Of a DNA stretch of 1,538 nt, positions 1 to 1,538 are shown in pieces. A program made the position numbers and the translations under genes. The first letter of the stretch is position 1. Every line of letters begins with the position of its first letter. The DNA comes from Escherichia coli O157:H7 (GTDB taxonomy: Bacteria > Pseudomonadota > Gammaproteobacteria > Enterobacterales > Enterobacteriaceae), in assembly GCF_013167455.1 (NCBI RefSeq), contig NZ_CP038329.1. One strand, written 5' to 3'. A model generated the notes under the pieces. It ran no database searches. It was not told where the DNA came from and saw nothing but the letters and a program-made list of their open reading frames with translations.

Positions 1-1
1 A

Positions 2-457
2 CGACTGAAACAACTTTCAGATGAGGCAAAGAAAAACACCGAGGATCTCGAAGAAGCAAAGAAGAATTCAAGGTTTACACAGGTATCCCCAAAAGGTTGG
101 GAACGCGTTCGAGAGCTGCTGAAGGATAGCCAAGGCATATCAGCACTGAAGCTGTACTCATTTTTAGCGGAGCATATCGATCCTACGTGTGGCGCTGTCG
201 TTGCGGATCAGCAATTCCTAGCTGAAAAACTTGGAGTTAGCAGAAGCACAATTATTCGGTGGCTCAATTACTTAGAATCAAAAAATGCATTAGTTAGAAT
301 CCCCGTTGCTGGTAAGGTTTGTGCGTATGCCCTCGATCCACATGAAGTCTGGAAGGGATACAACACTACGAAAAACCATGCAGCGTTTGTCACTAAAACA
401 CTGGTCAACAAAGACGGTGATATTCAGCGCCGAATCATGGCCATGTTTTCAAATTGA
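2..457 (+). CDS. 3' portion (152 codons) of a putative plasmid replication protein, RepL-like winged helix-turn-helix; 5' end lies outside the window
   Basis: Frame 2 is open from position 2 to the TGA at 455-457 (translated by hand: ...SQGISALKLYSFLAEHIDPTCGAVVADQQFLAEKLGVSRSTIIRWLNYLESKNALVRIPVAGKVCAYALDPHEVWKGY...MAMFSN*). The segment LAEKLGVSRSTIIRWLNYLE is a typical HTH; the overall pattern (LKLY..FL...D...V.A...LA...GVS..TI...L..LE..N.LVR....G.....L(D/N)P(H/E)...(K/R)G) parallels staphylococcal pSN2 RepL as I remember it. It is missing from the supplied ORF track only because no start codon lies within the window. Product assignment is from memory, not a search. Confidence 0.6.
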   Translation, partial: RLKQLSDEAKKNTEDLEEAKKNSRFTQVSPKGWERVRELLKDSQGISALKLYSFLAEHIDPTCGAVVADQQFLAEKLGVSRSTIIRWLNYLESKNALVRIPVAGKVCAYALDPHEVWKGYNTTKNHAAFVTKTLVNKDGDIQRRIMAMFSN

Positions 458-589
458 GCCAGCGGCAGGCGGACAATCAGGGGCTACGTGTTAACGTTTT
501 GACCATGATTGTCTATCCTGCATTGCTCTTTTGCCGCCTCAAAATCCCTTGCGTGTTTTTGCTCCCCGATCCCCAGAACGACCGCGCCG

Positions 590-860
590 CCACGGTTCCG
601 GCTGCGCCTTGAGCGCAACCGGAAACCGTCTGGGGAGAACCCCAGACCCCCATCGCTGTAACACCGACGGTCTACGACCACCAACCAGCCGAATAGCTGC
701 CTGTGCCGTGCAAATAGGCTTTGCAGGGAGCTGACGCGGTTCCTGGCGACCTGAAAGCCCCTGGTTAGGGGTATCGGCGCGCCTGACCTCCTGAGAGCCT
801 CTGTAAGCGTTTTTCGCGCCTTCCATGCCCTGGCGGGCATTTAAACCCGTTTCGTGCGTC
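590..860 (+). other. ColE1/pMB1-type replication origin region: 3' half of an RNAII-like pre-primer and predicted RNA-to-DNA switch point near ~815-835; diverged and apparently lacking the 5' RNAII/RNAI region
   Basis: By-eye collinear similarity to the pBR322 origin region as recalled: GGGAGCT at 726-732 lies ~100 nt upstream of CCATG (826-830), as GGGAGCT lies ~115 nt upstream of CCTATGG at the pBR322 origin. On the minus strand, gaaaaacgcttacagaggctctcaggaggtcaggcg resembles caaaaatcgacgctcaagtcagaggtggcg and gataccc..ccagg resembles gataccaggcg. Order and orientation agree with the bom and pas-like blocks. No RNAI-like three-stem-loop element or terminator was seen at 260-560. Confidence 0.4.
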
Positions 861-1010: not shown

Positions 1011-1046
1011 AACCGGAAGTTACATTGAGCACTTACGCACGGATGC

Positions 1047-1071
1047 GGGGTGTCGGGGTGAAGCCCTGACC
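1047..1071 (+). repeat. Inverted second copy of the 25-bp bom arm (ggggtgtcggggtgaagccctgacc)
   Basis: The reverse complement of 1265-1289 is ggggtgtcggggcgaagccctgacc, matching 1047-1071 at 24 of 25 positions. The two copies are inverted and 193 bp apart. Similarity to bom stops right after the repeat (aagtgggg here versus cagtcacg in bom). Confidence 0.75.
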
Positions 1072-1076
1072 AAGTG

Positions 1077-1114
1077 GGGAATGTCTGAGTGCGCGTGCGC
1101 GGTCAGACATTCCC
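1077..1114. repeat. Hairpin with 12-bp perfect stem (gggaatgtctga / tcagacattccc) and 14-nt alternating purine-pyrimidine loop (gtgcgcgtgcgcgg)
   Basis: Arms 1077-1088 and 1103-1114 are exact reverse complements. The loop 1089-1102 is two tandem gtgcgc units. It sits just inside the inverted bom-arm copy. Function unknown; a single-strand initiation site or relaxosome accessory site is a guess. Confidence 0.5.
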
Positions 1115-1228
1115 ACATCCTGTCCCGATTTCTGAGGCGTTTTAACGGTGAACGGACGGCAAAAACATGATCGAGCGTGGAGAGCGCGAAATCGGGCAAA
1201 ATCACGGCTGACGAGGCTTGCAGAGGAG

Positions 1229-1289
1229 TAAGCCAGTATACACTCCGCTATCGCTACGTGACTGGGTCAGGGCTTCGCCCCGACACCCC
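1229..1289 (-). other. ColE1/pMB1-family bom (oriT) including the conserved nic region
   Basis: Minus strand reads ggggtgtcggggcgaagccctgacccagtcacgtagcgatagcggagtgtatactggctta, against pBR322 bom (recalled) gggtgtcggggcgcagccatgacccagtcacgtagcgatagcggagtgtatactggctta. About 58 of 61 positions match by eye, including an identical 41-nt run tgacccagtcacgtagcgatagcggagtgtatactggctta. By analogy with ColE1, where I recall nicking mapped to CTGG/CTTA, the nick would fall on the minus strand between plus coordinates 1233 and 1232. Confidence 0.8.
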
Positions 1290-1291
1290 AA

Positions 1292-1320
1292 AAGGGCGTT
1301 GCGTTGCGCGCAACGCCCTT
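1292..1320 (-). terminator. GC-rich hairpin (aagggcgttgcg / cgcaacgccctt, 5-nt loop) abutting the bom arm; candidate intrinsic terminator for leftward transcription
   Basis: 12-bp perfect inverted repeat, 1292-1303 and 1309-1320. On the minus strand the GC stem is followed by TTTTGGGG, a short U-tract. On the plus strand no T-run follows directly, so the minus orientation is more plausible. It also coincides with the GC-rich to AT-rich junction. Confidence 0.35.
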
Positions 1321-1384
1321 GCCTAGAATAGATCTTTTACGCCGATTTGTAAGTTGTTGTTTTTTTAGTGTGTTTTTTGTTTAC

Positions 1385-1476: not shown

Positions 1477-1518
1477 TGAACCAACGTTAGTGCATGGGAT
1501 TTTCAGAGGGAAAAAATC

Positions 1519-1538
1519 ATGTTTATTGATTCAGAAAA
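1519..1538 (+). CDS. 5' end of an unidentified protein-coding gene (MFIDSE...), continues beyond the window
   Basis: ATG at 1519-1521 preceded by a purine-rich Shine-Dalgarno-like agaggg (1505-1510) at 8-nt spacing. AT-rich upstream region with operator-like palindromes. Only 6 codons are visible, so the product cannot be assigned. Confidence 0.4.

Follow-up and report, generated by a model that had tools for sequence, protein, structure and literature searches.

A one-gene pKL1-type plasmid of Escherichia coli and the remote relationship of its RepA protein to Firmicute RepL

Main finding

The stretch of Escherichia coli O157:H7 DNA studied here (contig NZ_CP038329.1; 1,538 nucleotides, in the following termed the window) very probably represents a plasmid of the pKL1 family, replicon type Col(MG828), with repA as the sole gene of the 1.5-kb circle. 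In this reading, RepA binds repeats upstream of its gene, starts replication and represses its own synthesis, while the remainder of the plasmid is G+C-rich non-coding DNA with two transfer origins, one of ColE1 type and one of IncI/K type. Both the plasmid and RepA are already known: their description dates back more than twenty years, and E. coli genomics routinely reports this replicon type.

The window as a complete plasmid

Comparison of the window with PLSDB yielded records of complete circular plasmids of 1538 bp, e.g., E. coli pSCU-482-3, that matched over 100% of its length with 99.9% identity, so that the window constitutes an entire plasmid that was cut open arbitrarily inside its only gene. 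These near-identical records are typed as Col(MG828) and mobilizable, and at least 80% of the window is covered by 327 PLSDB records. Rotated and aligned, the window is 95% identical to pKL1 (NC_002145.1, 1549 bp) over the whole circle. The two repA genes differ at 2 of 477 nucleotides, both changes being synonymous, and the encoded proteins are identical; outside repA, 77 differences are found in about 1070 non-coding positions. The two plasmids agree in gene order, in the repeats upstream of the gene and in replicon type Col(MG828), and differ in size (1549 bp for pKL1 vs. 1538 bp), in an 8-bp deletion at window position 1170 and in the arms of the IncI-type oriT hairpin, which are replaced at window positions 1078–1113.

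On the plus strand, positions 2–457 comprise 151 open codons followed by a TGA stop codon at 455–457. When the circle is closed, the frame continues across the junction to an ATG at 1519 and yields a coding sequence of 477 nt for a protein of 158 aa, the start of which (20 nt, from the ATG into codon 7) occupies positions 1519–1538 (+), as reconstructed from the circular reading frame, while the remainder, from the third base of codon 7 to the stop codon, occupies positions 1–457 (+), in line with the match to pKL1. An in-frame stop codon at 1477 lies 5' of this ATG, and direct reading reveals a Shine-Dalgarno-like GAGGGA at 1506–1511 (+), 7 nt 5' of the start codon. The same 477-nt coding sequence is annotated in the RefSeq record of an identical plasmid that begins at the ATG (WP_000469298.1), and the initial methionine is invariant across 20 family members. 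The sequence-only reading had described the visible C-terminal 152 residues of a cut-off gene and asked for the sequence upstream. This sequence has been recovered by closing the circle: the gene is complete, and 151 of the 158 residues are encoded at 2–457, the number 152 including the stop codon.

RepA is 100% identical to WP_000469298.1, which is encoded by pKL1 (NC_002145). Clustering at 90% identity groups the exact sequence with others into a set of 1164 members, for which O07102_ECOLX is the UniRef representative; some of the members carry the name "RepA plasmid replication protein". The RefSeq name of RepA is "helix-turn-helix domain-containing protein". The primary papers on pKL1 and RepA are those of Burian et al. 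from 1997, 1999 and 2003; in work on this plasmid, RepA was reportedly found to be needed for plasmid replication and to repress its own promoter. From the open reading frames and the comparison with pKL1, repA emerges as the only conserved reading frame of the plasmid, and in a further article pKL1 is presented as a selfish plasmid with repA as its sole gene (PMC3526173).

A tblastn search of PLSDB with RepA returned 586 records, relatives with 42–46% identity included. Plasmids of this type are frequently found in Escherichia, Klebsiella, Shigella and Salmonella, and the RepA family extends to Alphaproteobacteria. Distant relatives of RepL from pSN2 were proposed in 2010 for the small enterobacterial plasmids pHW126, pIGRK and pIGMS31 (PMC2831885). 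The pairing of a RepL-type protein with ColE1-type DNA, which the sequence-only reading had considered unusual, is thus common, given the known pKL1 type, the number of PLSDB records and the enterobacterial RepL relatives reported earlier. Literature searches for Col(MG828) together with pKL1 or oriT returned nothing specific.

RepA as a distant relative of Firmicute RepL proteins

The AF2 model of RepA (pLDDT 91.6) features a single winged-helix domain and predicts a long N-terminal helix, one winged helix-turn-helix (wHTH) domain and short C-terminal helices. The wHTH domain corresponds to aa 50–118 (nt 128–334, +) and the recognition HTH to approximately aa 77–100 (nt 209–280, +). The HTH recognized from the letters is hence borne out; the generic family HTH_36 (34.8 bits, cut-off 25) is the sole Pfam family that RepA matches above the cut-off. 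A sequence search of the PDB gave nothing below E 0.28, and against NCBIfam there was nothing above threshold, with sub-threshold matches to regulators only. Matches in BFVD were weak and not decisive, a few of them being named RepL or replisome organizer. The Rep_3 domain typical of RepE, pi and pPS10 RepA, which have two winged-helix domains, is absent among the Pfam matches listed for RepA (E ≤ 10, best 25 of 26).

A search with Pfam RepL (PF05732), proposed earlier as a check, gave a sub-threshold match for RepA itself (17.7 bits, E 0.0027, gathering score 20.3) that spans aa 52–131 vs. profile positions 54–128 of 164 and thus covers more than the HTH. The comparison was then extended to the whole family. 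Among 1.84 billion cluster representatives, 417 proteins were detected with a profile at E ≤ 0.001, and 61 full-length members with 29–58% identity to RepA were aligned. In the Pfam scan of these members, HTH_36 was found in 56 and RepL in 39 of the 61, with a best E-value for RepL of 3.7e-10. Members above the RepL cut-off are P0262 (34.8 bits, profile positions 24–128 of 164), P0264 (28.6), P0236 (23.7) and P0285 (21.6). Furthermore, full-length relatives with 42–46% identity that were detected by tblastn against PLSDB bear the RefSeq name "replication/maintenance protein RepL". They include proteins from a 1.9-kb E. coli plasmid, likewise of type Col(MG828), and from a Phaeobacter plasmid, which reach 21.4 and 21.1 bits and are therefore above the Pfam cut-off; the E. 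coli protein shares 45% identity with RepA (BLASTP, E 1e-42). As these relatives pass the cut-off while RepA fails it, the boundary of Pfam RepL cuts through the RepA family.

RepL from Staphylococcus epidermidis pNE131 (162 aa as called, 242.5 bits on Pfam RepL) served as bona fide reference. With hhalign, the RepA-family alignment matched this single protein with 90.9% probability (E 1.1e-6) and a set of 23 staphylococcal RepL proteins with 96.5% probability (E 9.9e-10, 99 columns), aa 27–135 of RepA being aligned with residues 33–132 of staphylococcal RepL. As a control, the family alignment was split into N-terminal flank, HTH core and C-terminal flank. The core alone contributed most of the signal, with 33.7 of 64.4 hhalign score units. 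The flanks alone scored 18.4 (N-terminal, P 0.006) and 16.7 (C-terminal, P 0.01) and aligned in the same register as in the full alignment, which argues for a similarity that reaches beyond the HTH, though each flank is weak. RepL proteins from the staphylococcal plasmids pSN2, pNE131 and pIM13 resemble RepA in their equal size (158 aa), in the central wHTH, in the flanking motifs N-F-x-x-x-Y and L-(D/N)-P-(H/E) and in serving as Rep proteins of very small plasmids. They differ from it in sharing only about 17–24% identity with RepA and in residing in Firmicutes, whereas RepA is hosted by Proteobacteria.

These comparisons support remote homology and the assignment of RepA as a distant member of an extended RepL superfamily, despite its failure to reach the formal Pfam threshold. 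The proposal that the protein belongs to RepL is upheld by the family as a whole (96.5% probability in hhalign, 39 of 61 members) and falls short for RepA itself, which stays under the Pfam cut-off. An explicit statement of the link between pKL1 and RepL was not found in the literature, although the RefSeq names of close relatives already imply it. At present, an experimentally studied initiator carries a generic HTH name in RefSeq whereas its relatives with 45% identity are called RepL; our results support one consistent family name. The link moreover connects a biochemically studied initiator from Gram-negative bacteria with the poorly understood, erm-carrying RepL plasmids of staphylococci.

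Candidate origin and RepA binding sites upstream of repA

The region upstream of the start codon (1326–1518) has a GC content of 42%. In its central part, a repeat search identified probable RepA binding sites (operator or origin repeats) at 1386–1433, a position that fits the published oriV of pKL1. The sequence GTCGCATCC is present there in three exact copies, at 1387 (+), 1412 (+) and 1422 (-). A perfect palindrome, GTTGTCGCATCC-T-GGATGCGACAAC, occupies 1409–1433 and is accompanied by a degenerate tandem copy at 1386–1408. The GTCGCATCC repeats and the palindrome lie 85–130 bp upstream of the repA ATG. They adjoin a stretch at 1326–1385 that is A+T-rich judging from GC content and is probably the unwinding part of oriV. 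An IHF-consensus-like site with one mismatch at 1350–1362 (-) is a match at chance level. Consensus searches of the window gave DnaA-box-like matches no better than chance and called no sigma-70 promoter.

A study that deals with pKL1 places its oriV upstream of rep, where a perfect inverted repeat is accompanied by an IHF box and several binding sites for Rep; for this description it cites the paper on the formation of hexamers by pKL1 RepA (PMC3832669). The repeats, the palindrome and the A+T-rich stretch probably correspond to this published picture, with the repeats as putative RepA sites. At the same position, a relative with 45% identity bears a palindrome together with tandem repeats that differ from those of the window, as would be expected if each Rep protein recognises its own sites. 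RepA most likely binds the GTCGCATCC repeats and the palindrome upstream of its own start codon, the assignment to these particular repeats being ours. Once bound, it would open the adjacent A+T-rich DNA, upon which plasmid replication could begin, and it would also repress its own promoter and in this way set the copy number.

The G+C-rich segment and its ColE1-like parts

The contrast in GC content between the gene and the adjacent segment that had been pointed out in the sequence-only reading is real (43.4% for repA vs. 58.8% for 458–1325). Such a composition would fit a mosaic plasmid in which a rep/ori module is combined with a G+C-rich module of cis-acting sites.

With blastn, only two segments of the window, 1229–1288 and 952–1010, matched ColE1, and the ColE1 origin region (640–1200) found no match in the window. 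Searches with Rfam detected RNAI neither in the window (E ≤ 1) nor in pKL1 (gathering threshold), while the ColE1 control scored 73.8 bits. Furthermore, most of the 2458 plasmid records that match the window share only the bom segment of roughly 60 bp. The absence of RNAI, the restriction of ColE1 similarity to two segments and the sharing of bom alone by most records argue for a ColE1-type transfer site and against a ColE1 replicon, and a ColE1 origin in the window was accordingly rejected. The earlier description as a ColE1-family backbone with a bom/origin region is therefore correct for bom/nic (98.3% over 60 nt) and for a weaker ColE1-like stretch, and does not apply to an origin or to RNAI/RNAII.

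The weaker stretch, delimited by blastn, spans 938–1039. Positions 952–1010 are 83% identical to ColE1 1309–1367, and 938–1039 is 75% identical to a ColE1-like plasmid (blastn). With the ColE1 origin placed by means of RNAI at ColE1 645–749, the counterpart lies about 115–170 bp downstream of that origin, in the region of the ColE1 primosome assembly site. The stretch 938–1039 may thus be a putative primosome-assembly or single-strand initiation site. As single-stranded DNA, it is predicted to form two hairpins (z about -2.4).

Positions 712–895 and 907–1039 are 91% and 79% identical, respectively, to DNA located between ddp1 and a replication initiation gene in a 100-kb IncN plasmid of Klebsiella (NZ_LR745047). 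Judging from this match, some of the G+C-rich segment is in circulation among other small replicons or their integrated copies. At 1292–1320, exactly where the G+C-rich segment gives way to the A+T-rich origin region, lies a perfect inverted repeat of 12 bp, AAGGGCGTTGCG / CGCAACGCCCTT, with a loop of 5 nt, which might act as a terminator or as a boundary element.

Two transfer origins

The first oriT is a ColE1-type bom/nic site at 1229–1292 (-), identified with blastn by its similarity to ColE1 and to a MOBP plasmid. Window positions 1229–1288 are 98.3% identical over 60 nt to ColE1 1462–1521, and the segment matches a 5.6-kb MOBP plasmid with 100% identity over 64 nt. The sequence CTGGCTTA is found within it on the minus strand at 1236..1229; the position of the nick in this segment is presumably that of ColE1. 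The sequence of the nic region and the element GGGTGTCGGGGCG.AGCCCTGACC are common to the window segment and the bom regions of ColE1 and pMB1. Unlike these plasmids, the window is devoid of mob genes, rop and an RNAI/RNAII origin, bom being a stand-alone cis site in a foreign replicon.

An oriT of IncI-gamma/K type is located at 1046–1131 (+), where 86 nt are 94% identical to an IncI-gamma/K1 plasmid. The matching sequence in NZ_CP028382 is intergenic and immediately precedes mobA (nikA-like) and a MOBP relaxase gene. The site comprises the conserved core, an 18-nt inverted repeat (1077–1114) with a hairpin z-score of -4.8 and a nick-like motif, ATCCTG|T, at 1117–1123. The two oriT-like sites, 1046–1131 (+) and 1229–1292 (-), stand in opposite orientation. 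They have a 29-nt core, GGGGTGTCGGGG.GAAGCCCTGACC, in common, which gives rise to a long-range inverted repeat (1047–1075 / 1261–1289). Judged from its two types of oriT, this one-gene plasmid could be mobilised by two kinds of helper relaxase provided by other plasmids. It illustrates a one-gene replicon that bears two borrowed transfer origins, whereas no mobilisation functions are known for the pSN2 family (PMC5703833).

Thirteen of the differences from pKL1 (pKL1 positions 464–499) cluster in the hairpin arms of the IncI-type oriT, window positions 1078–1113, and are compensatory. The arms read GGAATGTCTGA / TCAGACATTCC in the window, as in the IncI-gamma/K1 plasmid, and GTAATCGTAT / ATACGATTAC in pKL1. 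The window and pKL1 do not differ in the flanking core or in the nick-like motif. The replacement looks like an exchange of accessory-protein specificity by recombination.

Mode of replication and alternative explanations

The protein might be a mere transcriptional regulator on a plasmid that replicates from a host-driven origin of ColE1 type in the G+C-rich segment. Its top Pfam match is indeed a generic HTH family, mirrored in its RefSeq name, and ColE1-like DNA is present. The Rfam searches that found the ColE1 control and neither RNAI nor RNAII in the window or pKL1 speak against this explanation, as does the fact that similarity to ColE1 covers no more than bom/nic and some DNA downstream of the ColE1 origin. 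In addition, relatives in other plasmids of 1–3 kb are likewise the only or the main gene, and pKL1 encodes the identical protein under the name RepA, which the literature reports as a replication protein. We regard the regulator explanation as very improbable. Even smaller is the chance, next to negligible in our view, that RepA belongs with RepL from phage P1, the initiator of the lytic replicon with an origin inside its own gene. The name is common to both and the HTH segments align weakly over 47 columns, but hhalign assigns only 11% probability to the match between the RepA family and P1 RepL, and sizes and architectures differ, P1 RepL having 281 aa (YP_006518; repL at L004 5727–6572). 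P1 RepL was consequently rejected as a relative of RepA at the sequence level. Its earlier grouping with staphylococcal RepL did not hold either, as P1 RepL has no match to Pfam RepL PF05732 at E ≤ 0.001; P1 RepL and the RepL family of Firmicute plasmids have a name in common and no detectable homology.

More weight has to be given to the possibility that RepA acts as a rolling-circle initiator as assumed for RepL of the pSN2 family, i.e., that it nicks a double-strand origin upstream of its gene and that replication proceeds via single-stranded intermediates. In its favor, remote homology links the RepA family to RepL, the plasmid has the very small size of RepL plasmids, and these are classed as rolling-circle plasmids, though little studied (PMC5703833). 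In addition, when tested by deletion in a construct with two origins, pHW126, a distant relative from enterobacteria, replicated in the manner of a rolling-circle plasmid (PMC2831885). Against it, proteins of the RepL and pHW126 kind are devoid of the motifs typical of rolling-circle initiators and resemble wHTH initiators of theta type, and intermediates of both kinds occur for pIGMS31 (bioRxiv 10.1101/2022.12.05.519187). No HUH, Rep_1, Rep_2 or Rep_trans domain is present among the Pfam matches listed for RepA. We consider a rolling-circle mechanism unlikely for RepA; in the main reading, RepA binds the repeats upstream of its gene, and initiation may then proceed through theta-like melting of the origin. 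The published descriptions of the two groups differ: RepL plasmids count as rolling-circle replicons that possess a dso and an ssoA, and pKL1 is reported to have an oriV with Rep binding sites and an IHF box, its RepA forming hexamers.

The Rep proteins of pHW126, pIGRK and pIGMS31, small plasmids from Rahnella and Klebsiella, resemble RepA in their published descriptions: as already proposed distant relatives of pSN2 RepL they possess a wHTH, are autoregulators and have the origin upstream of rep, while their plasmids differ in carrying a mob gene and in being very A+T-rich. A more speculative thought, which we put forward tentatively and with considerable doubt, is that RepA proteins of the pKL1 family belong with RepL of Firmicutes to a single superfamily of minimal initiators (about 18 kDa) with a single winged helix that share a mechanism unlike that of HUH rolling-circle proteins. 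For example, the initiator might assemble on inverted repeats as an oligomer (hexamer) and thereby melt A+T-rich DNA next to them. If this were true, the long-standing classification of pSN2/RepL plasmids as rolling-circle would need revision, and what is known of pKL1 biochemistry could guide work on the RepL plasmids of staphylococci, which are uncharacterised.

Antisense features

No antisense RNA is known to us for pKL1. A terminator-like hairpin with a T-run lies antisense to repA at 381–403 (-) and occurs at the chance rate for the scan. The G+C-rich segment contains two arginine-rich antisense reading frames, one of 118 aa at 484–840 (-) and one of 95 aa at 539–826 (-). Alignment with pKL1 places 1-nt indels, at 500 and 576, within these frames, and the frame of 118 aa is broken in pKL1; they are thus probably not genes and were rejected as such. 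Some database records annotate short coding sequences in this region as "replication protein" or hypothetical.
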